A DNA stretch of 64,000 nt, taken from the NCBI GenBank assembly GCA_043228905.1, contig JBHGNT010000016.1, positions 16,120,001 through 16,184,000 on the forward strand. Reading direction: 5' to 3'. Source of the stretch: Azolla caroliniana. Its lineage: Eukaryota > Plantae > Polypodiophyta. Made by a program: the position numbers and the translations under genes. Each line of letters starts with the position of its first letter. Positions within the stretch are counted from its first letter, which is position 1. The notes under the pieces were generated by a model. That model saw nothing but the letters and a program-made list of their open reading frames with translations, searched no databases and had not been told where the DNA came from. Shown piece after piece: positions 13,571 through 63,931 of the stretch.

Positions 13571-13574
13571 GGAG

Positions 13575-32674: not shown

Positions 32675-32728
<54 letters not shown>

Positions 32729-37820: not shown

Positions 37821-37886
37821 CGATGGCTTAATGGTAAGCCATTTGACTCCTAACTTGGAGGTGCAAGGTTCGAATCCATACTTGCC
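37821..37886 (+). ncRNA. tRNA-like Pol III module in the G2 3' LTR
   Basis: A-box TGGCTTAATGG at 37824-37834 within a GGCTTA/TAAGCC stem. B-box GGTTCGAATCC at 37867-37877. T5 run near 37913. Confidence 0.65.
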
Positions 37887-38496
37887 CTCCTTGTATATGT
37901 AAATATGTATATATTTTTATATATTTATTTTATCTAGTCGCCGGTTCGCCGGATGCCGCCGCCGGATACCGACGCCGGATACCGGTGCCGCATGCCGCCG
38001 CCGGATTGCGGTCGGATGCCGTCGGATCACCGGCTCCATCGCCGGTCCGGTTTTGGTTGGCCAAAACCCTTTTCGAGTAGCTAACCACCTCCACTCTAAG
38101 TTCAAGTTACCTTGAACTGTCTATGCTCCACACATAGACACAAAGATAATATCTTTTGCTCCACCTTATATATGATGAGAGCCGTATTTGTCGTGCCTAT
38201 GTGGGATATCTCACAATTTTCTCTTTTCTTTTCACAAAATTTATACCCTCATATCTTGACATTTAGTTGTTCATTTCTCGTGTAATAAAGTGCATTCGAA
38301 ACCTTCATCATTTTGTACTTAGATATTAAAAATGTTATCTTCACAATTATTGTATTACGTGATTCATACTCGATTTTGTACGTTTTATGGGATTTTCACA
38401 CTATTGCCGAAAATCTTCACGACATCCTCCCCCACCAAACCGCACGTCCTCCGGTACGTGCCAAGAAGAGAAGAAGTGAGATTTCGGCTACGATGA

Positions 38497-41400
38497 TCAA
38501 TTAGATTCCTCCATGACTTCATTTTCATCCGGCGTATTATGTTCATCGTCGAGGTAATCGAGGTCAGGATCCTTGTCTTGTCCTTTCTTGAAAAGCTTTA
38601 CTCTTTTTCCCGCAATGGGTACGGCCAACCTTGATCCGTCTAGTTCCGCAAGGTGGTATGTGGCATTATCGTTGGCACTTGTCACCACATACGGCCCGAA
38701 CCATCTTCTTGCGAACTTCCTTGTTGTACTATGTTGATCGTTAAGGGTGCTGTCGTAAACCAAAACCCAATCCCCTTCTTCAATCTTCTTGGGACAAAGT
38801 CGATGCGTGTTGTCGAACCGAACTTTGTTCTTTACTCGGGCTGCCTTCATCATCTTTCGCGCTTTTTCTAAATCTTCAGGTCTTCTTTCAAGTTGCCTTA
38901 TCCGCGCCGCTAATAACTCTTCTCGGCTCATCTCGTTCTCCCACGGTATCGCTACCCATGAGGCGATCGTCCTTTCGATGGGCATAATCGGCTTTTGTCC
39001 ATAAATAAGCTCCGTCGGCATATACCCTGTCACCGAGCTATGTGTCGTTCTATCGGCCCACAAGGCATAGGGTAATAGTCGTGGCCAATTCCCGACTCGA
39101 CCGTTGCATGCCCGTACGATGGCTTTAACGATAAGTCCATGCCCTCGCTCGATCTTCCCATTTGCTTCCGGATTGTAGGCAGTCATGAGGGAGAGCTTCA
39201 CGCCTAGTCTTTCGAAGAGCTCCGTCGCTTCGTGCGCATCCAACTCCCCTCGGTCGGCCACTATCTTCCCTACACATCCATATCGGCAAACAACATCTTC
39301 AAGTAAAAATTTACAAACGGCAAAAATCGTCTTATTTGTCAAGGCTCATCCTTCCACTTGATTTGTCAAGTCTTCCCTTGCGAGCGCTAAGTACTTCATT
39401 TGTCCCACTCCCATTGGCATCGAGACCAAATCCACCATCCATTTGAAGTGAATGGTGAGTGGGTATGTCGGCTTTAACTCATCACGATGACGTATATTTG
39501 AATATACTTGGCAAGTTTCGCATGTGGACACGAAATGGAGTACATCTTTGTACATGCTTGGCCACCAGTACTTCTCCTTCAACTTTTCGAACGTCGCCCA
39601 TGTTCCTCTATGACCTGCCCAAGCACTCTCGTGGAATTCGGTCATCAGCGTCTCTTGCTCTTCTTTCTTTACCACCACTCGACGTGGTATTCCTGTCCTT
39701 CTTTTTGGATGTCGCCAAAGGAATCCTCCCTTCAAGAAGTATCGATAAGCTTTCTTCCGGATTCGTAGGGACTCCTCCTTTGTCAACGAAGCATCGGTCG
39801 TCAATGTTCTTAGGAATCTACCGATGAGTAACCACTCTCCTTCGTACTCGTTCTCGTTGAAGGCGTGGAGGGTTTGCGTGTCCTGGTCTTCCGCCGACAA
39901 TCGAGCCATCTTGAAGAAGTCGAGGGCGACATCTTCATCTTCCGAAACCATGTTACTTTCATTTGAAAATCTTGCCCTCGACAGCATGTCAGCCATGGCG
40001 TTCTTCTTCCCTGCGATGTGACGGATCTCTGGGTTTAAAGACTTGATGTAGGTGATCCACCTTAGCATAGCAAGATCTGGGGTCGCACATCCCGAGACCA
40101 TTCCGAGAATTGGGAGACAATCTGTCTCTATTATCACTTCTGACCCGATCAGGTAATCTTTGTCCGTCTTCACTGCCGACACAATACCCCAAAGTTCCCG
40201 CTTGACTTGGGCATATCTTTGTTGCCGTTCGCTGAGAACCATTGCTCCGAACCGGACGGCATATCGCGCATTATCTTCACCTTCTTGATTGATGACCCAC
40301 CCGATTCCGGTTGGGCTCGTATCTACGGTCACGTAAATTGGTTTCCCTTCAGCATAGTCGGCCTTCCTTAATGCCGGAGCTTCAAGAAGCAGTTTCTTTA
40401 ATCTTCGCATCGCCTCTGTGTGCTCGTCTCGCCATTCGAACTTTATTCTTTTCTTTAGTAGTCCATATAACGGTTCGGCGACATGAGCGTAGTGAGGAAT
40501 CCATATATGATAAAACGCGCACGCTCCAAGGAACCTTCGAACCTCCGTTTGGTTTTCGCATTCTTTTTTCATGTCTTGGATTGCGTTCACTTTGGATGGC
40601 GAGGGCTTCCGGCCGTATGCTCCACACAAGTGACCTACCACCAAGATCTCCGGTTTGCCCGAATGCGGATTTTTCTCCCGAAAATGTCAAATTCGCATCT
40701 TCGAGCCTTTGAAGCACCTTCTCGCAATCTTTCATATGATCCGCAACGAACTTTCTACAACCTTCCTTATCTTTCGATTCATCTTTCTCCTCATCTGAAC
40801 ATCCTTTTATCGGAATATCATCCAAGAATGGCATCGTGATGTCCGGAATGCAATCCTTCAAGACTTTATTCATGGCATTCACCATATGAGCCACCGAGTT
40901 CGTTGCGCCTTGGGGTAAGGTACACATCCGCACAAGCCCGATCGGAGTCCTCATGGTTGTAATGTCCCGACTGTCGATCGCCAATTGGAATTGGTCATAT
41001 CCGGAGTAGAGATCGCCAATGGAGTAGATGGACCGGCCCGCAAACGCTTCGGCAAATTCGTCCACGCTCGGACCGATTCCGGCATTTCGAATTGTCACCT
41101 TGTTGACGGGTTGAAGATCTTGGATGAATCGCAATGATCCATTCTTTTTCGGCACCGTGAACCACCTATTGGAATAAGGAGCATTCGACGGTTCTAGAAT
41201 TCCCATACTCACCTTCTCCTTTAAGAGCTCGATCAACTTCAGAAGGTGTGCTCTCGGAACCGGTATCGGTTTCAAATTCCAAGGCACATGAGGCACCGTG
41301 AAGATCACCATTGGCTCTATAACCTTTGGGTCGGCGCATCCAATTTCTCGTGGGAAGAATGCGAAAGCCTTCCCATGTCTCTCAAGCATATCACGAAACA

Positions 41401-41992
41401 TTCGCTCCTCTTCAGGGAGAAGGAAATCCTCCTTTCCAACTCGTAGCTTCCCCTTCGTCTCTTTGGTGAAGTCATTACCTATCTTCTTCGGATCTCTTAC
41501 GTTTCGATCGTTAGGGACTTCCTTCATCTTTTGCCAGCTATCTTCCGGTAGCGGAACCGCAACTGGCTTGATCTTCTTATCCACTGTTTTATATTTCGTG
41601 TTGATGTCAGCTTCATTCATCGAGATGCCACGACGGTATTCATCGATGATAGTGTACATGTTGACGGAGTTAACCGAAATCACACGTTGGTTGTGAAGAT
41701 AGCTCAAGTCCACGACGTCCTTGATTTCGCCGATGGTGTCGTTAAATGAGGCTTCTTCCATAATATGAGTCACGAACTCCCCTTCTTCTATTATGTTCTC
41801 TTCTTTCAGCATCTTCTCGAATTCTTGTATCTGGTGCTTGTGCTTCTTGTCGGGTAGTACTAGTTTACATGCGCCACTAGGTGTGACACATGTTGCTTCT
41901 CCTTGCAATCCACGCACTCTTCTTTCTTGTGGGGTCTTGTGATTGCTCGGACTATTTGTGCCCCATGCTTCAATAGTCCACTCTAAAAATCC
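38497..41992 (-). CDS. G2 pol (RT-RNaseH-integrase) in the -1 frame, with one 1-nt insertion (~40655) and one stop (39346)
   Basis: FIQDLQPVN, DLYSGYDQ, PFLDDIPIKG, VTVDTS, GHRG...CETCQ, VADRGE, YNPEANGKIER, WFGPYVV. Confidence 0.9.
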
Positions 41993-44187
41993 GAGGATTC
42001 GCCTCCGAGACTATCTCTATTCCTTTCATGATTGGCTCGCACTGTTAGGAATTGGACCGATCTTTGGTTGTCAAGACTCTTTATTCGTGCGAAGGCTGCT
42101 CCATTATCGAACACTTTGGTCTCCATCCGAGATGATGTGATATAAGGTTGCCCTAGGATGACAGAATGCGACACCGATTCTTGTACGAAGAAGTGTTGAT
42201 CCATCTCCACATCCCCGATCGTGACTTTGACATTGGGACAAGCTCCGTACAAATCCTCCGTAGACTCTGTTGCCGCGCGAATCTTCCATCCGTGGTTTGT
42301 ATTGATTGGCCATCTTCCCTTTTTGTAGAAGTCGGTTGACATGAGGTTGATCTCCGAGCCGTGGTCGATCAAGGCTACGACGGTCTCTTTCTTCTCCCCG
42401 ATCTTCACCGGCGTCTCCGTTGTCGCTCGTGCCCAATGAGGTCGAGTGTAGTGGCTGTCCACCATATCTTCATCGATTTCGTCTCTTGCCATCGTTATGG
42501 CATTCGTTTTTGCTTTCTGCGGCTTCTCTTCTTCCTCGTCCGATTGTTGTCTCTTTCTCTTAACAAGGTCCACGATCGTGTCATGGAACTCCTTCTTCGT
42601 AATGCCAAGCAATTCCCTCAAGGACAAAGTTACGTGGCTATCAAGAACTCGTTCTTCGAGAATCTTCTTTAGGTCCGTCGTCTGCTCTATGTCCGACCTT
42701 AGCTTATAGGTAGGTATGGTCCTTGTCCTCCGAGCGGGGTTTTCGACACCAACCTTCACGGGCCGAACCGTTTCTTCAACTCGTATGCTCGGCTCCCCTT
42801 TTCGGCTTGATTCTCGTTCCTCCGTTTGTAAAGGTCGACTCGTCTCCGCATCGTCCTTCTTTTTCGCGTTCCTTGTTTCATGTCTTTTTGATGGCCCTTG
42901 CTCTTCTATTCTCTTTCTCTTTTCTTCGACGAACACCTCGTGGTTGTCGCACATCACCTCTGCGAGTATGGTGTTGTCGTCCACCGGATCCGACCACCCG
43001 GTTATGCTTTGCACGCTTCGGTCCGCAAGCTCTACCTCGTTCGATGTGATTTTTCCCTTCTTCTCATATTCGAGAACGGAAGTCCAAAACTTTGCTCCCG
43101 CTCTAGCAGCTTCAGTCTTGTCTTTCCCGACTCTTATTCCGGCCGACGCAGCATAGTGCATCGCATCCACATGAGTCGCATCGGCATCCTCCATAGATCT
43201 CTTCATTCCTCCTCTTCCGAAATTCACCCGTAGGGGTCTTCTAGTCTCGCTTGAGCAGATCATGTTGTCCTCTATGTATACGATATTTTGTCGAATCGCC
43301 TCTCGAAGGCTCGCACAATCCCTTCTCATGTGGTCCATGCTATCGCACCACACGCATCTAAAGGGTTCTTTTCCTTTAGGGCCCCGACGATTCATGTTGG
43401 CTAGAGTGACCTTCTCGAACTTCTTCGCTAGCTCTTCAATGATGTCATCATCAATCTTCTTTTCTTCCACGTTACTTTGTCTTGGCGGCTCAGCTACTTT
43501 CGGCTGTCTTACTTTCTCCGTGGTAGTCGGTCCCATCAAGTCGGTGTCATCAACCCATTGGCGACGCTTGTCGAGCCTATTGCATGCCCGCTTCACCGCG
43601 ATCCAGTCCGCTACGAGCCCATTTGCTTGGGTATCATCTTCGAGAAGAGTCCCCAACTCCCGTCTATCCTTTATGTCCACGGCCTTCAAGAAGTACAAAG
43701 TCTTGTCCTCTTCAAGCAACACTTGGTCCGTATTGGGGAGACGACCAAACATCTGGTCGAATTCGTCGTACACCCTCGAGATGCTCATCTTCTTATTCTT
43801 CTTCTCTATCCACTTCATCAGGGCATGTCGAGTCATCCTCGTTGAGTCTTCAGTCACGAACTCCGCTAGTATCGTTTTCTCGAACTTGGACCATGTTGTC
43901 TTTCCTTCTTGAAGCTCGATGACGCGTCTTTGGATGTTGTTGGCGACAACTCTCTTGAAGCTTGCGATTTGACGTGCCTCGGACACATCCCTTTGATTCA
44001 TCTCCCTCTTATATGCATCAAGGAACTTCGTAACGTTCCTTCCATCGAATTGGCCCTTGAGCTCTACGACACGATCGACAGCCTTCTCCACGCTCGCGTC
44101 GTTGTCCCGAGATCTCATCATTTGCTCGATGATTAGCATCATCCTTTCGAGCTCTCCTGCTTGGTTGCTTGAGGACGCCATCTCCAA
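41983..44187 (-). CDS. G2 gag-protease ORF1 (734 aa, open)
   Basis: CVWCDSMDHMRRDC knuckle. Protease VALIDHGSEINLM...ILGQPY. Confidence 0.9.
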   Translation of the reverse strand: MEMASSSNQAGELERMMLIIEQMMRSRDNDASVEKAVDRVVELKGQFDGRNVTKFLDAYKREMNQRDVSEARQIASFKRVVANNIQRRVIELQEGKTTWSKFEKTILAEFVTEDSTRMTRHALMKWIEKKNKKMSISRVYDEFDQMFGRLPNTDQVLLEEDKTLYFLKAVDIKDRRELGTLLEDDTQANGLVADWIAVKRACNRLDKRRQWVDDTDLMGPTTTEKVRQPKVAEPPRQSNVEEKKIDDDIIEELAKKFEKVTLANMNRRGPKGKEPFRCVWCDSMDHMRRDCASLREAIRQNIVYIEDNMICSSETRRPLRVNFGRGGMKRSMEDADATHVDAMHYAASAGIRVGKDKTEAARAGAKFWTSVLEYEKKGKITSNEVELADRSVQSITGWSDPVDDNTILAEVMCDNHEVFVEEKRKRIEEQGPSKRHETRNAKKKDDAETSRPLQTEERESSRKGEPSIRVEETVRPVKVGVENPARRTRTIPTYKLRSDIEQTTDLKKILEERVLDSHVTLSLRELLGITKKEFHDTIVDLVKRKRQQSDEEEEKPQKAKTNAITMARDEIDEDMVDSHYTRPHWARATTETPVKIGEKKETVVALIDHGSEINLMSTDFYKKGRWPINTNHGWKIRAATESTEDLYGACPNVKVTIGDVEMDQHFFVQESVSHSVILGQPYITSSRMETKVFDNGAAFARIKSLDNQRSVQFLTVRANHERNRDSLGGESSDF

Positions 44188-44647
44188 GTATAAATCTCGA
44201 CTTGATCCTTCCTACCGCCTCTTTCACGTCGGGTTCACCACTTTATTATGTCGTGAAGATCCGTCACTACGCGCGGATCGTGAGGCGGAACCGCCGGGGT
44301 TCTGGACCAGAAGGATTTAGAGTCGATACAAGCTTTGGCGAGAAAGTACTTAAGATAGATTGGGAAAGAGAGAAGATGAGATTACACAATTGATTTGAAA
44401 AGGAATTTCTTCCTCTTAATTTTCATAAAAAAAAACCATCTTTTTCTCCTCCCCCTTCCCTCTTTTATAGATGCTCTCATGCATATGATGCATGTGAGGG
44501 TACAAGACATGCATAAATTGCATGTTTGCCATTTGGCGCTTAAGTATTACATGTGGTGCATGCTAACCATGTCACTCATTTTAGCACTCATGGATGAGAA
44601 TTTACATGTAAAAGTACAATGATAGAAATATAATTTCAACTAAATAC

Positions 44648-44712
44648 CATGGCTTAATGGTAAGCTATTTAACTCCTAACTTGGAGGTGCAAGGTTCGAA
44701 TCCATACTTGCC
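44648..44712 (+). ncRNA. tRNA-like Pol III module in the G2 5' LTR
   Basis: TGGCTTAATGG at 44650-44660 and GGTTCGAATCC at 44693-44703. Confidence 0.65.
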
Positions 44713-46684
44713 CTCCTTGTATATGTAAATATGTATATATTTTTATATATTTATTTTATCTAGTCGCCGGTTCGCCGGATGCCGCCGCCGGATACCGACG
44801 CCAGATACCGGTGCCGCCGCCGGATGCCGCCGGATGCCGCCGCCGACGCCGGATATTGACGCCGGATACCGGTGCCGCCGCCGGATGCCGACGCCGCATG
44901 ACGCCGCCGGATTGCGGTCGGATGCCGTCGGATCACCGGCTCCATCGCCGGTCCGGTTTTGGTTGGCCAAAACTCTTTTCGAGTAGCTAGCCACCTCCAC
45001 TCTAAGTTCAAGTTACCTTGAACTATCTATGCTCCACACATAAACACAAAGATAATATCTTTTGCTCCACCTTATATATGATGAGAGCCGTATTTGTCGT
45101 GCCTATGTGGTATATCTCACAATTTTCTCTTTTCTTTTCACAAACTTTATACCCTCATTTCTTGACATTTAGTTGTCCATTTCTCGTGTAATAAAGTGCA
45201 TTCGAAACCTCCATCATTTTGTACTTAGATATTAAAAATGTTATCTTCACAATTATTGTATTATGTGATTCATACTCGATTTTGTACGTTTTATGGGATT
45301 TTCGCACTATTGCCGAAAATCTTCACGACACCGGCATCTTCGTCTTCCCTTTTTCCTTGTGCGTAAGCCATCTCCTCGGCTTCCTTCGTGGGGAATGCAC
45401 GGCCGAGTTCTCGTCACCTTGATTTCCCCTGTTTTCGGAGGGTCCGGAATTGCTGTCCGCTTCACTTCGGTGCCTTCTTCCTTGATCTCATCGGCCGCCT
45501 CCATTGCGCACTGACTCGCCTCGTCCGCCACGACCATGGCGCCTATCTCCCTTTGTGTACAACATCTTGCTGCCGGCATGCGTGGTCGTCGACGCACCTG
45601 CGTGATTCTCTATAAGGAGCATTGACTGTAGGTCGAAAAACGATGGTGTATTCTCTTGTGTACACACAACAGTTCGGAACACTCCGAACTTCGACGCCAG
45701 TCCCCCGAGACAGATCTGCACCATCTCGCCTTCCTCGATGTTCACATTGATAGAGGCTAAGGAGTTGCATATCTCTTTGATCTTCGAGGTGTAATCAGCC
45801 ACCGACAAGTCGCGTTGTCGTAAGTTGCTTAGCTCTTGTCGGAGTTGAAGCTTCCTGGCTCTGGTGCTTTCGGCAAAAATCTTCTTCATATTTCCCCAAG
45901 CATCATTAGGCGTTTTCACATCCCGAATATAACTCAAAAGTTGTTCGCCCACACAAGACGCGAAGCAGTAGAGAACCCTGCTTGCCGATTGTTCCCAAGC
46001 CAGGAAGTCTTTGTGTGTCGAATCGGGTGCTGTGTCATTTGCTCCGTCGACGTAGCTCCAGTAACCGTGCCCGAGTAGGTACTGGTGCATCTTGTAAGAC
46101 CAAGACGTGTAGTTGTTTCTGTCGAACTTCTCTGTTGGAGGCGAGCTAGCCATGCCTCTATCCATTTTTTTTTGTTCTTTACGAAGGTTAGGTTTTCTTC
46201 TTGAGCTGAGATCGGTTTTAGAGGTTCTCAACCCTCTCACTTTGATACCATGTAAAAGAATAGCGTGCGGAAGCAATAGAAAACCGAATACAGAAACACA
46301 AGTTTAATGGAGAGCTTGAATATACATAGTACGCGGGAGAGAGAGAGAGAGAGAGAATGCACACAAAGCTTAATTAAAAAATACTACTTATTCTATACAT
46401 AGGATGTGCTCAGTAAGCACTTTTATAAAAGTCCATATGGACTGACAGAAGTACTGACATGTACTTCAATGCTCATAAATGAGCTCTACACTAACTCCCA
46501 AAATATATTTCTACTCGGAATATCTTTCCAACGGCCTCGCGGTTTACGCACCGCTATGGCCTCTCATTGCGTACTGGTTTGCGTAATAGTTTACACACCG
46601 GTCTGGCCTAACCGATCGATCCCAACTGATCCAGTTCTCGGCTTGCACAGCCGATCCTGCCAATGTTGGGCTTGTCTCTCAACA

Positions 46685-49080: not shown

Positions 49081-50606
49081 TTCAATTAGGGAGGTCAAAG
49101 GGTTGAGGTGTGGGTGTGACCTGTGGTCCCGATGAAGGTACCCCAACCATGGCTTGTAGGCAGTGTAACTCACGTTGCCTTATTTTCTTAATTGCTTCTA
49201 CACCACATTGAGTTGCATTGAAACCTGACATCCGAAGGCGTTTTGTTCTTCTTTGGTTTTTTGCTTCATCAATGAAGATGCTGAGTGGTGCATGTGTGTG
49301 CACATTCATTGTCTCACCCTGTCCTTGAAAAACTTCATTGGCTACATGATGGTCAATATTAAAAAAGTTATTGTTAACATTTTGTAGTTTATTCTCTTTA
49401 TTTTGTTTAGCTCTAAGATATATCTACCTAATTTCCTTATATCTAGAGTATCTAATAGTCTGGAGAGGGTGGGAGAGGGTCTGAGTATGTCTTGGTATTT
49501 TCCCCTTATCTCGGCATAAGTTGGACACTTGCATGTAAAGTGGTACTCATCCTCTATCTCTATGTGATATAATCTAAATATTCTTTCCTCTCTAGGGACC
49601 CCATTATTATGATTATTCTCAATCTCAAGTTGGTGAGACGATAGTCTAAGTTTTCCAATGGCAAGCCTTACTGCATTTGGTAAGAATACATCCAGATATG
49701 TCTTGTAATAAAGCCTAACTTAAAGAAGTGCATGAAGTGTTCTTTATAGTACAACATTTTAGATGGAAGTGGCTCTAGTGGGGTGATCAATTTATATCGA
49801 GTGTAAATTTTTCATATTTCTTGGCATATTACTTTATTACGGTTTTCATGAGAGATTAAAGTTTTATCAATCTCGTGATTGTACCTAAGCGGAGCTAGGT
49901 TATTAATGTCTAAGTTGTTTGCATGAAGCCAACTCACCATCATGCTATACCAAGACCTAGTATATCTGGACTCATAAAGTGATTGAGATGCCTCAAAAGT
50001 GTAGTGAGATATCCTATCTTGTGGTTCGCTATGTATCCTATGAATAAAGATTACAAATTGAAAACGTTCTTCTACTAACATCGGGGGTAAAATGAACTCA
50101 ACTCTAATAATGTCATGTGGTATTGTTGATTTACTTCGGAGTTGACTTGATAACATCATCACCAATGGTCTCTCTAATGGCATCCACATGAAAGATGGTA
50201 ACCCTAGAGCCCAAACCACTGGTGCATGTACATGAGGGAAGCTGTCATGGACGTAGACGATGGCAAGTTCAAGTAGGCGAGCTCAATATTAAGAATGAGA
50301 GAAAGATAGATATATAGATAGAGAGGAGCATAGACAAGAGAACAAGAGAGAGAGAGAGGGTAGACCAAAGAGCGAGAACTAAAATATGCTTCCGTAACTG
50401 GTGTTGTTCACCTTGACTGTAATCAAGGTGCACCGAAGTATTTATACAAGAATGTGGTGGTATGCATGTAAGCTAGGAAACATCTAGAGAATGCATGGAA
50501 ACTTCTACAGAGTGCACGTCCATGCATTCTCTAGAAGTTTCTTGAAAGTTCTAGCGATTAACTTACAATGTAATAAGTTGAAACTTATCCAATATAATAA
50601 TGCATA

Positions 50607-50681
50607 GATGGAATGTAGCTCAATTGGTAAGGTTGCCCAATAAGAACAAGAGGTCATGGGTTCAACCCCCTACATTCCATC
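50607..50681 (+). ncRNA. tRNA-like module at the U3 end of the G3 3' LTR
   Basis: 12-bp inverted repeat GATGGAATGTAG/CTACATTCCATC bounding TAGCTCAATTGG (A-box) and GGTTCAACCCC (B-box). Confidence 0.65.
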
Positions 50682-53600
50682 ATGTCTATGACATTATCCT
50701 CCCTCTAAGGCTGCATTCCGTTGATGAAAATCGTAGTTGGCTTATGTGGTCAACCTTATATTCTTCGCCCGTCGACAATTCCACAGGTGGCGGTGGAGGA
50801 GGGTGTCATCCTGGAATTTGAGAAGGATGGTAGAGTTCGTGGAGGGAAACGTGATAAACATCGTGAATCTTGAATGTTTGAGGAAGTGCTAACCTAAAGG
50901 TGACTGTTGATCTGCTCGATAATACGAAAGGGGCCTAGTCTTTTGTAGTCCAATTTTGCACAAGGACGTGTGGTGGCGATGTGACGACGTAACAACCTAG
51001 CCATGTCCCCGATTGCAAACGTCGGTGCAGCTAAGTGATGTCGGTCCGCTTGATATTTATAGTGGTCACCAGCAACATGGAGCTCCAAGGAGAGGTCACG
51101 ATGGACATCGTGTAAAAGTGCGGGCACACATCTTTGCCAAAGGATTGATTGAAGTTGCAGGTATGGAAATGCTGAAACGAGAGTGAAATCCATAGTTTGC
51201 AAAGAAGGGGGAAATCTTAGTCGAAGCATGGATACTATTATTGTAAGCAAATTCCACCATTGCAAGGAAGTCCACCCAATCCTCCTGTTGGTAGCTCATG
51301 GTACACTGAAGGTATTGTTCGAGGATTTGGTTGACTCGCTCCATTTGTCCATCAGTTTGAGGATGGTATGCTGAGGACAAGTTGACAGAAGTCCCGAATG
51401 TTTGCATAAGTCATCGCCAAAAGTGGGAAATGAACTGAGAACCTCGATTAGAGGTGATATCCTCGGGTAAGCCGTGTAATCGAATAACATTTTTAAGAAA
51501 AAGATCCGTTGTCTCTTCCCCGGAAATGGTTTTGGAACATGGAACCAAGTGAGCCATCTTCGAAAACCGATCAACAACGACTAGCACCGTGTCATGTCCA
51601 CCAACTAGAGGGAGGTCAATGATAAAGTCCATGGATAGAGAGACCCATGGTCGACATGGAATGGGGAGCGAGTGGAGAAGACCATATGGCCGATGGTGAG
51701 GTGTTTTGGACCGAGCACATACATCACATGTCTTGATAAATTCCTTGACAAATTTCCATGGTTGGGGCCACCAAAACCCTCGAGATAGCAATTCCAAGGT
51801 TTTCGTAACCCCAAAGTGGCTGGCAAGAGGATCATCATGACAGTTTTGTAGAACCCGTCCCGTGTATGACATGATCCTTCGAGAACGTACAAGAGATGAT
51901 TATGATATAGTAACCCATCTCGGGTTGTAAATTAGTTGAGATATGAGCTTTTCATGTCCGGAGATGGTTCCTTAATGCGGCCCATGATTTCTTTGGCGAA
52001 TGGGTTTGACACAGTTGTCGTGGCGATCTCGTTGAGCAAAGAATCATCATGTAACATGCAGGTGGCGAACATCTGAAGTTGATCGGGCCACAATAAAAAA
52101 TGGGATTGTTGTGAATATGCATCATCTCCTGGGCGCAATGCAAAATCAAGTCGCCGAGAGAGGGCATCAACTTTCCCATGTTGAACTCCGGGTCGAAACA
52201 AGATCTCAAAGTCGTAGTCGGCGAGAAAAGATGACCATCGGGCTTGCCTCCGATTCAATGTACAATTGATTGTGAAGTAAATTAGATTTTTGTGGTCGGT
52301 CAACACTTGGATACGATGTTGGGCCCCAACCAAATAGGGTCAACATTTGGTGAAGGCATATATGATTGCTGCCAGCTCCTTATCGTAGACTGGATAATTA
52401 ATTTCCGGGGTGGTAAACTTCCGAGAGTAGAAGGCAATAGGACGTAGTATTCCCTCATCGTCTGATTGGGACATGACAACTCCAATGGCAAAGTCGGAGG
52501 CATCGGTTTCGACTTGGAAGGGCCTTGTGGGGTCGGGGTGGACCAACACTGGGGCTATCAGAAAAGTTGCCTTGAGGGCATCAAAAGCACGTTGCGCCAC
52601 AAAGGTCCAAAGAAATGGAGTATCTTTTCTTGTAAGGATGATTAGAGGTTGTACTAAAGTCGAAAAACCATTGATAAATTGTCGATAGAAATTTGCAAAA
52701 CCAAGAAATGATTGTACCTCTTTTAACCGAGTAGGGACAGGCCAATCGGTGATTGCCGCTACCTTGCGTGCATCCATTGTGATCCAAGAGGGTGAAATCA
52801 CGTAGCCTAGGAATTGAACAGAGATCCGATCAAATTCACATTTCTCCCTTTTGGCGTAAAATCCATGTTCCCGAAGTCTGGATAGGACCAATCGGACGTA
52901 TCGGGTGTGCTCCTCTATGTTGGAAGAAAAAACTAAAATGTCGTCAAGGTAGATCACCACGAAGTGATCGAGATACTCCCGGAATATATTGTTCATCATG
53001 TACTGAAAGATCGCAGGGGCGTTGGTGAAACCAAAAGGCATCACCTTGTACTCGAAATGTCCATAGCGTGTTTAGAAGGCCGTTTTCCACTCATCTCCTG
53101 GCTTGATACACACCAGATTGTAGGCTCCCCACAGGTCGATTTCGGAGAAGATACGCCCGGTTCGAAGTCGGTCAAGAAGTGTTGGAATTAAAGGCAAGGG
53201 GTAACGATTACGTACCGTAATTTTGTTGAAGCCCCGATAATCCACACATAGGCGTAATGAGCCGTCCTTCTTCTTGACAAATAAGATTAGGGCTCTAGCC
53301 GGTGATTTGGAGGGTTGAATGAATCCCTTGGCGAGGTTTTCATCTAGATATGTGCGAAGGGCCTCAAGTTCGGGTTCAGATAACCCATAGATGGGCCCAA
53401 ATGGTGGGTGTGCGCCATCTTGGAGTTCGATTGGTCAATCATAGGGGCGATGTGCCGGCAACCGGTGTGCATTTCATTTTTTGAACACGTCCAAAAAATC
53501 GCTATATCTTGCGGGCAAATTGGTAACATGAGTAGGGGCGTCCTGTGACACAACAGGCACGGAAGCGACCACGCTAGAATCGGCCACAACGGAATCGGAA

Positions 53601-55603
53601 GCATCAGAGACTGAGTTGAAATCAGAAGAATGTGCACCCAAGCTGAAAGTAGCCCCCACACAAGGAACAATGTTTGTGGAAAGGGCCCGTGCTGGTGTTT
53701 GTGGAAAAGTGATGGAGTGGCTACACCAATCCACCATCGGATTGTGTGTTTCCAACCAGGAGAGCCCTAAAACAATTGGATGACGAGGGGTTGCAATGAG
53801 GTAGAATGTTAATACCTCCTGGTGGAACCCGACTTGAAATACCAACGGGACAATGGCTTCGGTAACTGCCCTTGAAGAGAGAACCCATCCGTCGCTAGCT
53901 TCAACAGATATGGGTTGTGTTGTGCGGACGGTTGGAATTTTATGTGCTCGGACGAACGCGATATTGATGAAACAAGTAGATGCACCAGAATCGAGCAAGG
54001 CATGGGATTTTATTGAAATAGACCCAAAACAAAGACTTACTTGCAAAGTAAAACCTTTTGTTGTCGTGACTGAATTGTAGGAGCACGAAGAACTAGGGCG
54101 ACAGGAAGTGTCCAATGGCATGGCTCCTACTGCAGCCAGACTTGCTTGTTTTCTTGTTGTCCAGAAACCTCTGCAAGACGTGCACGGTCGTTTTCTTGTT
54201 GTCGAGAAACCTCTGCAAGACATGCATGGTGGGATTGATGATGAGGGCCATGCATCGGGCAGTGGCGGATGACATGGTTGGGGGTACCACAATAGAGGCA
54301 AAGGCCATTGTCACATCGATGTTGATGTTGGGCATCGGTTAATGGTTGGAACCAAGCATGGTCGATCTCCATTGGGGTAAGGGGATCGACCTCCATCGGG
54401 GTATGAGCACTATTGGAAGATGGCAATCGTGGCGTGCTTGGCGAAACTGATATATATACAACCTTGTGAGTGGAGCATTGTGGGAGGAAGATGGAAAACC
54501 TCAAGTCCCCCGTTCCTCTTGTCGAAGCTCAAAAAGATGATTATCATATTGAACGGCTTGGGAGATTACCTGGGACAATGATGTGAGCTTCGGAAAGTTT
54601 AAGAGAAGAGTCTTGATATCATTTTGGAGGCCTCGACGAAACTGGTCGCATAAAGCTTGCTCATCCCAATTGACATCGCACGTGATCTTACGAAACTCTG
54701 AAGCATAAACGGAAGCTGAACGAGAGCCCTGTTGTAAGGAATAGAGTTTCGTGAGTGCCATTCATCGTCGATCTGTCTCTCCGAATGTGGCTTCAAGCTC
54801 CACAAGGAAGGCAGGAAAGTTGTCTAGGAGGGGTGATGAGGTCTCGATCAATGGTGCAAATCAAACTTGTGCCGGCCCAGAGAAAAGGCTGCCAACGAGG
54901 CCAACCCAGAGAAATCACTAGCATAACGTTAGGGTTGTAAGCGGATGATAAGCCGAATTTGATTGATGAAGCCACGAAGATACGCCCTCAAGCCGTTGAA
55001 TTTGTCAGGTAGGTGGACGTTAGGTTCGAGGACATATGAATGGGAAGAGGAAGGGGTTGGGTTAGATGCTGACAGAAGGTGAGGCTGAACGGGTGAAGGA
55101 TTGTTGGCTGTGCTATTTTGAAGCTCTCACAATGACTGACGAAGGCTTTCATTTTCTAATTGAAGTTGCTCCAAGGCTGCCATTACTTGGTTTAAGGCCG
55201 AGTCAGACATGTAACAAGAAGGGAAGGTGAACAAACTATCACGGACGTAGACGATGGCAAGGACAAGTAGTCGAGCTCAATATTAAGAAAGAGAGAAAGA
55301 TAGATAAATAGATAGGGAGGAGAATAGACAAGAGAACAAGAGAGAGAGAGAGAGAGGGTAGACCAAAGAGCGAGAACTAAATTATGCTTCCGTAATTGGT
55401 GTTCACCTTGATTGTAATCAAGGTGCACCGAAGTATTTATACAAGAATGTGGTGGTATGCATGTAAGCTAGGAAACATCTAGAGAATGGATGGAAACTTC
55501 TACAAAGTGCATATCTATGCATTCTCTAGAAGTTTCTTGAAAGTTCTAGTGATTAACTTACAATGTAATAAGTTGAAACTTATATACAATATAATAATGT
55601 ATA

Positions 55604-55678
55604 GATGGAATGTAGCTCAACTGGTAAGGTTGCCCAATTAGACCAAGAGGTCATGGGTTCAAACCGTTACATTCCATC
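55604..55678 (+). ncRNA. tRNA-like module at the U3 end of the G3 5' LTR
   Basis: GATGGAATGTAGCTCAACTGGTAAG...GAGGTCATGGGTTCAAACCGTTACATTCCATC. Confidence 0.65.
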
Positions 55679-58060
55679 GTGTCTATGACAGAAATGGTCA
55701 CTGATGAGTCGAAGAGCCAACCCTTAGTCCATACCTCTTCAAAGTATGCCTAGTAGTATTGTCTCTCTAAGAGTGAGAGGGATGCATATGCTCTCGAAAA
55801 TCTATCCTTTGTTGCCTATGCCATTGAAAATTTACATGAGCGGGCATTGGAAGTGACTCCACGATATACGTATGATCCAACTACCTCAATTGGTCTATGA
55901 GAGAGGGCTAGGTAACACTTAGTTTTAACTCGAGCTGTTGTGTGAAGATAGAGAATTTAGTTATTTGTTAATGCATTACCAATCCTTGTTGTGTGGAAAA
56001 GTCACCTAAGGCATTAAGGCGTCTTTGTAGGTTGTATTCAGACTCAGAGAACAAAACTATGTCGTATGCATAAAGCAAGATACTAACTTGTGTACCTCCA
56101 AGGACTATCCATTGCCTCCCTTACGAGCATTAAAATCCGTGATCTTATCAATGTAGATCCCAAAAGGAGTTAGTGATAGGAGGAAATCTTGTTTTATACC
56201 AATGGTGCTAGTGAAGCACGCAACTGTCATATAGTGAGTAGATGGCCCAAATCATGTCATCTGGTATCTTCAAGCTTTTTAAGTCTATTAAATAAACACT
56301 CTCAAAATTCCACAAAACAACAATATAACTTCTCCTTGTAAGCGTTTGTCTAGTCAATTAAGCATCTAAGCGTGAAGATATGGTCAATATTAGAGAAGCC
56401 TCGTCTAAAACTAGCTTGTTCAAGTGATCAAAGACTTAAGGTCTCCATATAATTGTTGAGCTCTACTTCCATTACTGCACCATATAATTTAGTGAGTGTA
56501 TGACCTATCATAATGGTCCTATATGTATTTGGCTCCATGGAGTCCCCCCCCCCCCCTTTATGTATGGGGACCATTGTGTTCATGGTCCACCTCAGCGAGG
56601 GCACCATTGAAGATTAAAGTTAGAAAAAGAGCTAGGCACGCTTGTGCATATATGATGTGTTCTGCTTGCAATTCTAAGTGGTCCATGGACTTCCTATGTT
56701 GTAATTTCCTTTTGACCTTTGTGATCCAAGACATTGTGAAAATTGTCCCCATGGTAGGTTGGGGTGTACAAGGCATGGGAATGGGTGGGTCGTTCAGGAC
56801 TTGATAAAGTCTCTTTGTATATGTGTGCCAAGTGTTGGGATTCTCGATGGGTGTTTGTGGTCTTGGTTCGAGTAGTCTCTTCTATGTGGTGGCCCCTTCG
56901 CTACTCATGAGCATATGGTAGAGTTCCCAATATTGAGATGTCTCCCATGCTCGTCTCTTACGACGTCTCATCTTGTGCATTTCTTTGCAAGCCTGTACTG
57001 AGGTAATAATACCATTGAGTCGCAATACTTTAAGTTTTCTATATAAGTCTTCACAATCCTCATCATACAATCTATTTTGTGGCATAAACCCTATTCTACC
57101 CTAGTTTGAGTATTTCGTGGGAAACTACTAATTGTTGCGGAGTGAAGGATGTGTGTGAATTCCATAGCTAGGTTTTCTAAAGGCAAGGAGGAATCAAGAG
57201 AGGAGTTCTGGGCTTGAACATATCAGAAGTAGATGTCAGAGAGCTCACGTGTGACATGTATTTTGGTGTGATGGCTTGGCTAACTAGAGTTACTAGCGTT
57301 GGACATATTGCCTGGCCAAATATAACATGGGGTCACTTGGAAGGAGTTAATCATGTGGATAACTTTAGGGCATCCTATTAGGTAATCAACTGTGCTTTCC
57401 CTCCTCCATGTGGGAAGCATGTGAGATCTTTTGAGCCCACCCACTTGGCTAAACCATTATATATGATCATCCGGTGCCGACTACCAAGTTCGAGCAAATG
57501 ATGGCCAAAGCTCATGGCATCTGCACCTTGATCTTTTGATCTACGTGTGACGCCTATGGCTAAAGGATCGACATTTACAATTTCTAGGTTTCCATCTATC
57601 TGAAATGTTGTGCGCTATTGGGTTTTGGTTCGTGCATTGAAATCTCCTACGAGGAAAACTTCTCCCTATGAAGAATATCAACCATGCGGTAGGAGGGAAA
57701 AATACTTTAGTACAAATTCCAACAATTCCCCCTTAGGTAAATCTTATTGACTTTGTGTATGATATAGCTAAAGATTGTTATGTTGCACATATTAAGATAT
57801 GTAGTGCATCACATAAAAATAAAGAGTTGGGAGGAGAGTCTAGTAACTCTCAACAAAAGAAGAAGTAAGGGGGAGGAAGAATAAGAAGGCTAGAAGAAGT
57901 GAAAGGAGTCTTAGTAGAAGAAAGAGAGAAGAAGGAAAGAATATTATGGACTAGTGTCATTGAGACTATTTTGGTGCTCCAAGGAGGCTCAATTCTCTCC
58001 GTACCCCAAGGAGGGCTGATTCTTTGCATACCCCACGAAGGGTAGATTCCTTCCATATCA

Positions 58061-58322
58061 TTGGAAGCCAATATGTCTTTTCAATTTGTTTTTGCAGGTG
58101 ACGGGGTCCAAGCTGTCGGATCTTTCTTGGCCACCTTCGAACATCATGCAGTATCAATAGGGAAGATGACAGAATTTGAGAAGCTTCCTCTATTGTTGGC
58201 CACTTTTTATGGAGGAGCAAGGGATTGGCATGAGTCCTTGCTACCAACCCAACAAGATACTATCTATCGGTGAAAAAATGTAAAGCTAAGTATATTCCAT
58301 GTCAAAATGGAATGGAAGTGCC
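58061..58322 (+). pseudogene. Gag-like fragment, apparently continuing after 63931
   Basis: FAGDGVQAVGSFLATFE...EKLPLLLATFYGGARDWHESL, and REELFRLRM after the G4 3' LTR. Confidence 0.45.
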
Positions 58323-61300
58323 TGTCATGATATGGCAAGACTCGAACCCATGACCTTATGTTGTATGGGTTGAGCTCTTGACCATTATACCATCTATTGT
58401 AATACATAGGATATTATTTTCATCTAAGTTTTATTATAGGAAATTAATGTATATTCCAGATTTCTCTAGAACATTCTTGAAGCTTCAAGACTCCTCCTGA
58501 GAACACTATAAAAGGAGGCACAAAGCATTATGTTGAACCAAATTGGTTCAACGCCAGTCTTAAGCCTCATAGCCTTTTTGCACTTACTCTTCATATAATA
58601 TATCATCTGTTATCATCATCTCTCTCTCTCTCTCTCTTTTGGGAGTCTTATGCAATCCCCTCCTCTTAGTACTAATAGTACTTCCCTTCTCCAGTACTAA
58701 TTCTCTCTCTATTTTAGTACTATTCCTGATAGTTTGAACCAATTTGCCTCTAGTCTTCTTTTCGGTTTCCCTCATCCTCTGACCCCCCTTTTTTCCAATA
58801 CTATGGCTACTATTAACGCCCAAGAATATCAATCAGTTTTCTCCGAGCTATAGGGTCTAAAAGAAAAATTTGTTGCCTTGGAACAAGAAAACCAACGATT
58901 GTTAGGGGATTGTCAACAAATCGCTCTAGAAAAACAACAAACGCAACAACAACATGGGGAGTTAGCGTTACGTGTACAACAACTCGAAGCAATCATCGTA
59001 GCGTTGCAACAACAAGGATCAAGACCCCAAGGATTTCATAAAGAGCACAAGATTGGACTTCCTATGAAATTCGATGGAACGTGATCACAATTCAGGGGAT
59101 TTCTTAATCAGGTCCGCTTAGTCATTCAAATGCATCCTTCCTAATACCCCACTGATGCATCCCGAATCGGCCTAATAGGCACGTTGGTTAGTGGCTCAGC
59201 CTTGGCATGGTTCGCTCCGCTTCTAGAAAAACAATCGCCCTTGCTTAATAACTTTGATGACTTTATTAGCGAGTTTAAAGCTTGCTTTGGAGATATCGAC
59301 AACATCAGGACGACGATCAACAAAATCTGACGATTGCGTCAAGGTGATCGTCCAGCCTCTGCCTACGCGGCGGATTTCCGTCTACTCGCCTCAGATATCC
59401 CCTGGGATGATCAGGCACTAATGGAGCAGTTTCGCTACGGCCTACGAAACGATGTCAAAGATTTACTCTTAACCTTCCCCGAAGAACCAAAGTCTCTTAC
59501 AGAGGCAATTAGTCGAGCAATCTGATGCGACAACCGCCTTTTCGAACAACGTTTTGAACGTCAATTACAAATACCACGCCTCAGTCACGGCTAAACCGTT
59601 TGCACGAGATGTATCTCAAGCAAATACTTCGACACCGATGGAGATCGGCACCATGTGTTGATGTGGCCCGTTATCGGAAGAAGAAAAGCAACGACGACAT
59701 ACAAATCGATTATGTCTTTATTGCGGTGGACCTGGGCATATTGCAATCAACTGTCCCCATAGGCCAAGAAGACAGGTAAATCAAAATCGTAGTCTGTACT
59801 AAACCCGAATCAATTCTTCCCTTACAAGTGTCTGATAGTATTAATAGTACTAATAGCCCAGGTATCTCAAACAAATTTGAAATCCTTAGTCAATTAGGAG
59901 AAGAGTTAAACGACTGAGTCCAACCAAAATAGGAGCTGTTTGGTTGGACAGCCCTAGATCTGTACAACCCATTAGTGGTTCCATTCCCTCCAAGAAAGTT
60001 AGCAATGTGTTCTTAGCCCAAGTCATGGTTAGTACTAAATGTACTCCTCTAGTACACGTCCTAACACTTTTAGATTCCGGAGCTGATTCTTGTTTTATGG
60101 ATCGAAATTTTGCCCAAGTTTCTCAGATATCCCTAAGAAAACTTCCTTGTCCCACATCTGTAGTAGGGATTGATGGTCGTCCTATTGCTTCTGGGAATAT
60201 TGTAGAAGAGTCAGAACCAATTCAGGTTGTCCTAGGTTGTTTTGTGGGTGTGGTATCATTTAATATAATTAGTAGTCCAGAGCATCCCATTGTCCTAGGA
60301 TTACCTTGGTTTGAATTACATAATCCAGACATAGATTGGAGAACAAGAGAAGTCCAGTATCGACAACCCCAAGAATCTACTCATCGAGTTTTGACCATTC
60401 ACTCCATCAATTACGTGAAGAAGGACACAAGGAGGCAATGTTTTTATTTGCAATATCAGTACATCCTTCCAACAATATTCAGAAGGAATCCTTAGTGCAA
60501 CTTCTGGCGAAATATCATCCTTATGCCAATGTATTTGACAAGGTAAAAGCCATTACTCTTCCTCATCATCGTCCCTACGATTGTCCCTACGATTTAAAAC
60601 CAAGAACAGAGCCACCATGGGGACCAATTTACAACTTGTCACCAACCGAGTTAGAAGTCCTTCGAGCCTACATAGAGGAGAATTAGGCAAGCGGGTTTAT
60701 TCGTCATTCGAGATCTCTAGCCGGTGCACCCATCTTCTTTGTCAAGAAGAAAGATGGATCACTTCGTCTCGTCGTTGATTACCGTGGCTTGAATAAGGTC
60801 CCCATCAGGAATAGGTATGCACTTCCTCTTATATTAGTCTTTTAGAGCGAGTAAATGGTGCAAAGTTTTTAACAAAAATCGATCTATGAGGAGCGTATAA
60901 CCTCGTGCGGATCTGACTGGGAGATGAATGGAAGATCGCCTTTCACACGTGGTATGGGCATGTCGAGTATACCGTTATGCCGTTCGGTCTAACCAATGTG
61001 CCCGTAGTCTTCCAACACATGGCAAATGATATATTCAAAGACCTCTTGGATATCTATTTGATCATCTATCTGGATGATCTATTGATTTATTCAAAGACCC
61101 AGGAAGAGCATGATTCTCATGTACTATTAGTACTAAAATGACTCCGAGAGAATGGTCTTTATGCCAAACTAGAAAAATGCAGCTTTGACTGCCAGCAAGT
61201 GGAATTTCTAGGCTACATCATCTCCTCAAAGGGCATCTCCATGGATCCGGCTAAAGTCAAAACTGTGCTAGAGTGGCAAACTCCATATTCGTTACGAGAT

Positions 61301-63789
61301 GTACAATGTTTTCTTGGTTTTGCTAATTTCTGCCGCAAGTTTATACAAGATTACTCGAAGATTATTTTACCTCTCACACAGCTTACGAAGAAGGGACAGG
61401 CATTTCTTTGGTCCAATGAAGCAAACATGGCTTTTCGGCATCTTAAGAAAGCCTTTACATCAGCTCCTATTCTAGCTCATGTGGATACAAACAAACCATT
61501 CATCATGGAGGCCGGCACATCGGATTTCACCCTTGGTAGCATCCTTTCTCAACAAGGAGATAAAGAAGAGTTACATCCTGTGGCTTTCCATTCGCGCAAG
61601 TTTGATGCCACGGAAATCAAATACGAGATACATGACAAGGAGTTATTAGTCATCGTGGATTCATTTGTGTAATGGCAGCACTTCTTAGAGGGCTCTCCAC
61701 ATCAGGTCATCATCTTCAGTGATCACAAAAATCTTGCTTATTTCCAGAACGCTCGTGTACTAAATCGACGACAAGGTCAGTGGGCCCAATTCCTCACGCA
61801 TTTTGACTTCAAAATCACATATCGATTGGGGAAGAAGAAAGGAAAAGCAAATGCACTATCGCGACGTTCATATCTTGCACCTCGTCCTAGTGATCTAGCG
61901 TTTGATAATCAAAAGTAGGTAATCTTGGGACCAACATGTTTGCACACAACGCGGATTTTTCACTCTCTACTAGATTCCCGAATTATCCATACCATACGTG
62001 CTAACTTGAAGACAAACAGTTTTGCTCAAGCCATTCTAGCGCACATTGATACCTCTCGGGCATCCTGTTCCCAGTTTCAACAACTAGGTATGGACTACTG
62101 ACAATTCGAATATCAGGATGGTTTATTGTACTTTAAAAAGCTCGTATAAGTTCCCAATTGCTCCTATCGCCTTCAAATCGTCCAAAATTGTCACGACACC
62201 CATACAACGGGACATTTCGATAGTACAAAGACGTTGGATCTAGTTCAACGATATTTTTGGTGGCCCCATATGCGATGTTTTGTCGATGACTACATTCGGA
62301 CCTGTGATGCTTGCTGCCGAGCAAAGATGCCACGACATCAATATGGCTTGTTGGAACCCTTACCGATTCCAAGTAAGACGTGGCAGTCTATTTGTCTTGA
62401 TTTTATCACAGATCTACTGGTCTCGAAGGGTTTCGATGTTGTTTTAACCGTTGTTGATCGATATACTAAGATGGCACATTTTGTGCCGTGTACTAAGGCC
62501 ATCACTAGTGAGGAAACCGCCGCCATTGTCATGCGTGAGGTATTTCGGCATCATGGCCTCCCAGACAGTATCATCAGTGACTGAGGATCTCAATCCGTCT
62601 CCAAATTTTGGAAGCATCTCTTCAAGATGGTCAAGGTCTCTTGTAACCTCTCCTCCGGCTACCATCCCTAGACCGACGGGCAGGTGGGACGAACAAATGA
62701 AACACTGGAACAATACCTCTGGTGTTTTCTGAGTTATCAGTAGGATGATTAGGCTGATATTCTCCACTTTGCAGAGCTTGCTTATAATAACGCTATTCAC
62801 TCCTCGACTCGGGTCTCCCCATTTTACGCTTATACTAGTTCTCATCCTTGTTGGTCTGTGATCGACAACCCGGAGCTACCTACCAATCCTCGTGCCGAGG
62901 ATTATTTGGAGAGGCTAGGCAAGATTCAGATGGATCTCTCTACTCATCCTCGTCATGCTCAACACACACAAAAGACTTATGCGGATCGTCATCGGCTTCC
63001 CTCCTCTTTTGCCATCGGATACCGAGTATGGCTCTTACGTCGTCACATCAAGACTATTCGATCGTGCGAAAAGTTGGATTATCGACGATTCAGTCCTTTC
63101 CGTATTAATGGTAAGGTTAATGATGTCACATTTCGCCTTGATCTTCCCCCGCGTCTTCAGATACATCTGGTCTTCCATAGTTCTCTTCTTGAACCTTATA
63201 AAGCAAACACTATTCCCGATCGTGTTACACAACCGCCGCCCCCACTTGAGTTAGATGCCGACCTAGAGTATGAAGTTGTTGCCATCCTCGACTCCAAATT
63301 TATTCGCAACAAACTTTATTATTTGGTCGATTGGCTTGGCTATAGTTTGAGCGAACATACTTGGGAACCCGCCAAGCATGTCACCAATGCCTAAGATCTT
63401 CTTGCTGATTTCCACCGATAGTATCCGGACAAACCCGGTCCTCAATCAGTGCCGACTCGTTACACTCATCATCGTAAGGGGGGGATAGTGTCATGATATG
63501 GCAAAACTCAAACCCATGACCTTATGTTATATGGGTCAAGCTCTTGACCATTATACCATCTATTGTAATACGTAGGATATTATTTTCATTTAAGTTTCAT
63601 TATAGGAAATTAATGCATATTTCATTATAGAAGCTTCAAGACTCCTCTTGAGAACACTATAAAAGGAGGCACAAGGGATTATGTTGAACAAAATTGGTTC
63701 AACGCTAGTCTTAAGCCTCATAGCCATTTTTTACTTACTCTTCATATAATATATCATCTGTTATCATCATTATCTCTCTCTCTCTCGTC

Positions 63790-63825
<36 letters not shown>

Positions 63826-63931
63826 CTCTCTCCCTCTCTCAAGAGTCTTATGCAATCCCGTCCTCTTAGTACTAATAGTACTTCCCTTCTCTAGTTCTAA
63901 TTCTCTCTCTATTTTAGTACTATTCTTGACA
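58323..63931 (+). mobile_element. Gypsy chromovirus G4 (Tcn1-like), decayed, with chromodomain
   Basis: LTRs 58323-58731 and 63489-63931. PPT AAGGGGGGGATAG. LLDSGADSCF, IYLDD, FLGFANF, CLDFITDL. Chromodomain YEVVAILDSK...YYLVDWLGY...TWEP. Weak TSD GTGCC/ATGCG. Confidence 0.92.
58330..58397 (-). ncRNA. tRNA-like module at the U3 end of the G4 5' LTR; the second copy is at ~63496-63563
   Basis: Minus strand ATAGATGGTATAATGGTC (A-box)...AGGTCATGGGTTCGAGTC (B-box), followed by the LTR terminus ATGACA. Confidence 0.6.

Follow-up and report, generated by a model that had tools for sequence, protein, structure and literature searches.

The present analysis concerns a 64,000-nucleotide stretch of Azolla caroliniana DNA (GCA_043228905.1, contig JBHGNT010000016.1, positions 16,120,001 to 16,184,000; referred to as the window, with coordinates counted from its first base), in which nested long terminal repeat (LTR) retrotransposons adjoin a lectin receptor kinase gene. 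Three Ty3/gypsy elements of the window, designated G3, G4 and F3, carry in both LTRs a tRNA-derived cassette oriented antisense to pol. It shows the layout of a type 2 RNA polymerase III (Pol III) promoter, namely an A-box and a B-box at tRNA spacing, with base G10 of the A-box mostly lost. This antisense module is real and clade-wide among the Tcn1-like relatives of G3 and G4; box bases and spacing are kept, and the cloverleaf, the closing stem and the terminator are for the most part not preserved. Based on this pattern, the module is tentatively interpreted (with a probability of roughly 0.45) as a DNA-level site at which TFIIIC, along with TFIIIB and Pol III, would hold the LTR promoter in an open state and delimit it from neighbouring silent chromatin.

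G3 (50243..55690, minus strand, 5.4 kb) and G4 (58323..63931, plus strand, 5.6 kb) are Tcn1-like elements with broken pol genes. In G3, whose LTRs at 50243..50693 (3') and 55237..55690 (5'), both on the minus strand, are 6.0% diverged, the cassettes lie on the plus strand at 50607..50681 (A-box 50616-50627, B-box 50659-50668) and 55604..55678 (A-box 55613-55624, B-box 55656-55665). In G4, featuring an LTR pair diverged by 7.2% (5' LTR at 58323..58731, plus strand), they occupy the minus strand at 58330..58397 (A-box 58392-58382, B-box 58348-58339) and 63496..63563 (A-box 63558-63548, B-box 63514-63505). The boxes are located where an earlier note on this DNA had placed them, all antisense to pol, and 12 and 7 bp separate the cassette ends from the termini of the LTRs. 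The assignment of both boxes to every one of these LTRs holds for three copies; in the 3' LTR of G4, the A-box is intact, but the B-box is decayed and shows two mismatches, including the invariant C. Moreover, both cassette-bearing families described in that note were recovered, but a third LTR pair with the module had been overlooked. In F3 (37422..45330, minus strand; LTRs at 37422-38424 and 44249-45330, 2.1% diverged), plus-strand cassettes are present in the 3' LTR at 37824..37876 (full A-box 37824-37834, B-box 37867-37876) and in the 5' LTR at 44650..44702 (A-box 44650-44660, B-box 44693-44702).

The number of these cassettes is above chance. When both strands of the window were scanned, a two-box matrix trained on 12 other families detected six sites that reached 16 bits or more, namely the four G3 and G4 cassettes and the two F3 cassettes, versus none in five shuffled strands. 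The remaining ten LTR copies that were delimited here, among them those of a second Phygy-like pair and four of the copia type, reached scores of 1.0 or below, and no free-standing cassette copy was found within the window. ARAGORN called no tRNA in the window and none of the cassettes, neither there nor across 60 loci, and the best cassette copy reached 24.3 bits against Rfam, which is below the cut-off of 29. Given these results and the lack of a cloverleaf with an anticodon arm, a functional tRNA gene was rejected. A use of the cassette as primer for reverse transcription was also rejected, since a self-priming site and a polypurine tract are present. The primer sites of G3 (55224..55233, minus strand, a 10-nt complement) and G4 (58732..58746, plus strand, a 13-nt complement to 58539-58551) can pair with a stretch of the respective LTR located about 32 nt past the TATA, as in self-priming Tcn1. 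The polypurine tracts were located at 50694..50709 (minus strand), adjoining the tip of the unique 3' region (U3) of G3, and at 63476..63488 (plus strand) in G4.

Relatives were collected by alignment of the integrase C-terminus, and of at least 466 confirmed matches, the best 80 yielded 77 metagenome loci; as these are the best-scoring integrase matches, the sample leans toward G4, and the metagenome contigs are probably collapsed from many copies. The LTR start was located in 70 of the 77 loci. Together with the two 3' LTRs of the window, 72 copies were obtained, three of which were too short, and the remaining 69 fell into 27 families when a nucleotide identity of 85% across the 300 nt upstream was applied. 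A leave-one-family-out matrix detected the antisense module in 22 of 27 families (40 of 69 copies), whereas the sense orientation was found in 0/27. With a strict generic consensus, 19 of 27 families (34/69 copies) were positive in antisense and none in sense. The same consensus matched 40/13800 shuffles, 3/122 segments at LTR positions 136-270 and 23/718 internal windows of 135 nt, 18 of the latter originating from one family (4/280 with one member per family). The U3 regions themselves were alignable over 100 nt in only 14 of the 231 pairs of positive families. Absence from most members, which the earlier note had named as refuting its proposal of a retained LTR-embedded module, is accordingly not observed at the family level.

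In a tree of 46 rows, comprising representatives of the loci and fungal outgroups, the module occurs in both deep clades, i.e., the G4 clade (16 rows, support 100/100) and the G3 clade (15 rows, 99/95), whose integrase ends are approximately 55-60% identical. One cassette-less family and locus L064 branch between them. This pattern is compatible with a module inherited from the ancestor and lost in places, or with one that was gained repeatedly. Furthermore, locus L072 (3801-4220) possesses an LTR that is 79% identical to the G3 LTR, and its integrase groups with that of L063, which suggests LTR exchange between families. Outside the LTR heads used here, seven additional matrix sites were found in 435 kb of loci, six of which resemble LTR heads and one of which is unassigned. 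The exact G3 cassette pattern was found 0 times in viral contigs, in which six distant Tcn1 relatives were detected, and none in a later search.

Conservation was evaluated for 19 representatives picked by the strict consensus scan, so that identity values of the boxes are partly set by this selection. The bases AGGT, located 8-5 nt before the B-box and not part of the search, are kept in 19, 17, 19 and 19 of the 19 representatives. In the A-box, T8 is retained in 14/19, R9 in 17/19 and Y11 in 17/19, versus backgrounds of 0.35, 0.53 and 0.47, with a small circularity because the register of a few rows was chosen with the motif itself. The distance from A-box to B-box is 33-35 nt in 16 of 19 representatives. 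Among the 14 families with a spacing of 34-35 nt, mean identity amounts to 0.68 for the A-box, 1.0 for AGGT and 0.85 for the B-box, compared to 0.27-0.36 for spacer and flanks; this difference is in line with the retained module of the earlier note. In contrast to the box bases, elements of tRNA structure are mostly lost. T-stem pairing drops outward (19, 17, 15, 10 and 5 of 19), and a full 7-bp acceptor stem was found in one of 18 scorable relatives. The perfect 12-bp closing stem described for G3 exists at 50607-50681, whereas the other G3 copy contains one G-T pair, and a conserved closing stem was rejected as a part of the module. The same applies to ATAGATGG, thought to be shared by G3 and G4, which lies in different tRNA registers in these elements and occurs in 1/19 representatives, and to ATGACA, which belongs to the ordinary LTR terminus, as 26 of 28 families begin with TGTCA regardless of a cassette.

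The position of the module relative to the Pol II promoter is also similar among families. In 11 of the 19 families, those in which a TATA and a primer-type hairpin were located (a match in L011 with a different palindrome is omitted), the TATA lies 124-204 nt from the GG of the A-box. The respective distances are 182 nt in G3 (TATA 55441-55436), 125 nt in G4 (TATA 58507) and 191 nt in F3 (TATA 44469, about 190 bp downstream of the divergently oriented cassette). Given this distance and the opposite direction, the module is arranged like a promoter that diverges from the Pol II promoter on its upstream side. Between B-box and U3 end, 6-65 nt remain in the Tcn1 families; in L058, the B-box stops 6 nt short of the LTR terminus. 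The LTR tip, where the earlier note had placed the module, proved not to be its general location, since the module of F3 lies mid-LTR at the same TATA distance; its place at the tip in Tcn1 results from the short U3 of these elements.

F3 is a non-chromovirus gypsy element. With a length of 7909 bp (7.9 kb, within the Phygy range of 7.7-10 kb), a CCGG target duplication of the 4-bp NCGN type and no Chromo hit, it shares the features given for Phygy in parts of the descriptions by PMC6317226 and PMC2864245; all papers cited here are considered in part of their text. Its cassette is antisense like those of G3 and G4, but is several hundred bases away from the LTR end. In blastn comparisons, the F3 LTR showed no similarity to the G3 or G4 LTR, and its cassette may possibly represent an independent capture. 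The primer site is of the tRNA type, initiated by TGG, and may be complementary to tRNA-Trp. No F3 relatives were found in viral contigs and none above 40% identity in the fetched loci, so the F3 cassette is represented by a single element. A second Phygy-like element at 32097-36914, featuring a GCGG 4-bp duplication and a tRNA-type primer site, has no cassette; two open reading frames tested in it obtained no Pfam hit, and it is probably non-autonomous.

Since boxes and spacing are conserved and an RNA is not, the pattern points to a DNA site for TFIIIC; moreover, the module cannot serve as the element's own promoter because it faces away. In the proposed mechanism, selection would act on the boxes during element replication. 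TFIIIC would bind the box pair, and TFIIIB would be placed on the AT-rich tract of U3 that lies toward the TATA from the A-box. The bound complex would keep the stretch up to the TATA open and limit silent chromatin entering from the flank. With the cassette facing outward, the TFIIIB site would remain within the LTR at any landing place, and Pol III would be directed away from the promoter used by Pol II. Because both ends receive a copy of U3, the module of the 5' LTR would be the one at work. Elements containing a chromodomain are thought to target heterochromatin, and RLG1, a chromodomain element of moss, is heterochromatic and also expressed (PMC7466625). Barriers formed by tRNA genes (tDNA) require TFIIIC and Pol III (PMC2040200), and TFIIIC sites shape nearby Pol II transcription (PMC4228148).

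Several points weigh against this interpretation. The module is missing in five of the 27 families, including the best-sampled one with 21 fetched copies; 29/69 copies score negative as a result, 21 of them from this one family, and the families are mutually related, so that family counts do not represent independent events. Selaginella SM-Tcn1, judged by eye, also lacks the module. A-box base G10 is kept in only 5/19 representatives. In Arabidopsis, methylated heterochromatic tDNA clusters are silenced and do not act as barriers (PMC7544208). The barrier of fission yeast works in either orientation (PMC2040200), and barrier function alone therefore leaves the fixed direction of the module unexplained. 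Furthermore, the Pol II transcript runs through the cassette of the 3' LTR, and a Pol III complex assembled there could block genomic RNA.

Among the alternatives, an unlikely but still serious one is that the product matters, i.e., that an antisense or read-out RNA transcribed by Pol III adjusts the copy number of the element or alters the chromatin of its flanks. Such transcription would agree with the presence of both boxes at tRNA spacing, an AT-rich tract upstream of the A-box (0.62-0.90 AT) and a CA-type motif near position +1 in 13 of 19 representatives. A genuine tRNA-Pro gene in L077, considered for comparison, features CAA within an AT-rich leader as well as a T-run close by. In F3, a T-run follows 37 nt past the B-box, and a transcript from the 3' LTR would span the polypurine tract and the integrase end. 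The G3, G4 and F3 cassettes also fold better than shuffled sequences (z < -2 in four of five copies). However, they fold into differing hairpins, the G4 cassette of the 5' LTR forming a long one without cloverleaf, and only 3/19 representatives reach z < -2. No common structure, length or terminator is apparent: a run of four T residues occurs within the LTR in 5/19, and the first such run is 11 to more than 500 nt away. In addition, an antisense RNA should contribute to the silencing of its own element.

It is less probable that the boxes act on linear cDNA or upon integration, with TFIIIC next to the U3 end serving as a tether between the integration complex and either integrase or Pol III-related chromatin. 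The closeness of the B-box to the U3 end in Tcn1 families would suit such a role, the integrase of Ty1 is known to bind a Pol III subunit (PMC12786077), and L077 carries an element plus the tRNA-Pro gene, which is one case. The mid-LTR position of the module in F3, at a distance of several hundred bases to the LTR end, does not fit. Moreover, G3 is nested in a repeat, the window is devoid of tRNA genes, and a tRNA gene was found in only 1/60 loci scanned, most of which have little flank.

A similarly small probability is assigned to the idea that the tRNA-derived motifs now serve another binder, for example a Pol II transcription factor or a reverse-transcription step near the polypurine tract. 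The 5' half of the A-box has drifted, as seen for G10, while AGGT and a TTA after the GG are kept outside the textbook boxes. On the other hand, both boxes and their tRNA-like distance are kept jointly, which fits one two-part factor, and the textbook A-box of F3 is far from its polypurine tract. Equally improbable is a functionless passenger derived from one old insertion of a short interspersed nuclear element (SINE) or tRNA into an ancestral U3 and a separate one in F3: a single event would explain the common place and direction in Tcn1, several families have lost the module, tRNA-like pieces are remarked upon for many LTRs by Kojima (PMC10886601), and contigs with a G3-type cassette hint at a free relative, but conservation over two deep clades is limited to boxes and spacing, and the mutable CpG of the B-box is kept in 13/19 families (observed/expected CpG elsewhere in U3, 0.45) yet lost in the inserted G4 3' LTR copy, so that the cross-family pattern largely refutes this explanation. 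The contigs in question originate from reads (runs X1, X4 and X20), in which the G3-type cassette (window 50613-50680) recurs with different flanks and an A-rich tail; they are a possible lead to a free SINE-like family. An isolated A/B-box pair at L066:12930-13010, followed by a T-run and not attributed to any LTR, may be a SINE or tRNA relic.

Among known systems, Helenus (TRIMp3), described by Kojima in 2024 (PMC10886601), is the nearest kind, with differences in coding capacity, orientation and primer type. Both LTRs of Helenus contain tRNA-derived A- and B-boxes that are conserved, a functional tRNA being unlikely, and one plant family is known, from Selaginella (PMC10886601). However, Helenus elements are non-coding, 311-1263 bp long and tRNA-primed, whereas G3, G4 and F3 are 5.4-7.9 kb in length and feature gag-pol and a TATA. 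The Helenus cassette has sense orientation in the LTR sequences inspected and was proposed to be the element's own promoter (PMC10886601), whereas all six window copies face outward. Its tRNA-type primer site has a counterpart in F3, in contrast to the self-complementary sites of G3 and G4. In the part of PMC10886601 considered, only elements below 1 kb are covered, autonomous partners are expected to use Pol II, 'not a few LTRs' are stated to contain tRNA-like sequence, and a term search found no mention of mosses. The same source describes Cassandra and Ajax, terminal-repeat retrotransposons in miniature that likewise contain the Pol III promoter of a small-RNA gene inside the LTR. These are 5S-derived and non-coding, and the promoter of Cassandra was shown to transcribe the element itself (PMC10886601); the analogy to Cassandra drawn in the earlier note is weak, because the G3, G4 and F3 module faces away from the element. 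In tRNA-derived SINE heads, the boxes are kept within a degenerate tRNA. The LTR cassettes differ from them in having neither SINE body, tail nor own target duplication and in moving as part of the LTR.

G3 and G4 share the self-priming site and the length of about 5.5 kb with Tcn1 chromoviruses (REXdb, PMC6317226; PMC2864245), 83% of which self-prime; the chromodomain integrase of this group is seen in G4. Tcn1-like and Phygy-like elements have been reported from mosses and club-mosses (REXdb, PMC6317226). The descriptions of both groups in the consulted parts of PMC6317226 and PMC2864245, which do not extend to REXdb additional files 1 and 3, do not mention a Pol III module in the LTR. Neither term checks in parts of PMC2864245, PMC6317226, PMC7466625, PMC3729371 and PMC12786077 nor full-text literature searches yielded an autonomous moss element described with an antisense Pol III module, a scope outside which subscription journals, Repbase notes and the two REXdb files lie. 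Regarding function, tDNA barriers and extra-TFIIIC sites of yeast, at which TFIIIC or Pol III act on chromatin and nearby Pol II without a tRNA product (PMC2040200, PMC4228148), are the systems that the module is proposed to resemble. These are fixed loci of a fungal host, whereas the module belongs to a mobile element in a plant and is described here at the sequence level.

Further features of the elements and their surroundings were recorded. G3, G4 and F3 encode reverse transcriptase, RNase H and integrase. Both G3 and G4 had been regarded as chromoviruses. For G4, this is supported by a chromodomain (PF00385, E 6e-10) in addition to reverse transcriptase, RNase H and integrase, whereas the present G3 copy is truncated in the chromodomain region and stops short of a full domain; in the integrase comparison, its sister L048 matches through this region. 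Each of the two elements is flanked by an imperfect 5-bp target duplication with 3/5 bases matching, and an empty-site copy for G3 is compatible with a 5-bp duplication. This G3 site lies in one of two repeat copies (12321-13625 and 49138-50247) possessing a 435-codon open frame without Pfam match. Between cassette and TATA, perfect four-unit heat-shock-element-like arrays are present at 50534-50551 and 55529-55546 in G3 and at 58469-58486 in G4. They account for 6/7 perfect matches of this kind in the window, compared to a shuffle mean of 0.62, with the usual heat-shock-element consensus applied. At least one three-unit match was found in 14 of 28 family representatives, and others feature CATGCA or GCCAAnTGGC repeats. 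The predicted transcription start of G4 (58530-58551), G3 (55400-55430) and many relatives falls within a hairpin of 9-12 bp; as the primer site is bound by the 3' arm of this hairpin, the 5' arm is similar to the primer site in sequence.

Regarding the relatives, the U3 tip of the 21-copy family without cassette (L049-L083) is mostly a tandem array of approximately 30-bp units, and the U3 tip of Selaginella SM-Tcn1 is also tandemly repeated. Two chromovirus integrase fragments (L084 and L085) were found in prokaryote or bacterial assemblies and are likely eukaryotic contamination; L084 has no cassette. Elsewhere in the window, a G-type lectin receptor-like kinase is encoded at 617-3852, with lectin and kinase domains in separate frames. 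A search with the kinase yielded matches at 88-91%, and seed plants at no more than 51%. Long open frames without Pfam match at 26504-29474 belong to the 3' part of a gypsy element (14987-29962) that hosts a nested copia element.

Extending the interpretation as a TFIIIC site, a tRNA promoter could have been domesticated by gypsy elements that insert into silent chromatin, serving them as a portable TFIIIC insulator of the promoter they use for Pol II. It may have been kept across an entire radiation, refreshed by LTR exchange or new capture, and separately acquired in Phygy; this broader scenario is rather doubtful. If true, the portable insulator would give autonomous LTR elements a protein-free means of countering silencing, and it would be the first natural system, within the literature searched, in which tDNA barrier function could be tested in plants. 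The module is a concrete and mutable candidate for answering how chromodomain retrotransposons stay expressed in heterochromatin, with sister families without module as natural controls, and TFIIIC barrier activity would become testable in a plant. If bound, thousands of LTR copies would constitute dispersed TFIIIC sites and possible read-out promoters. Capture of Pol III promoters would thus be extended from mini-elements using it as their own promoter to autonomous elements, which need another use for it.

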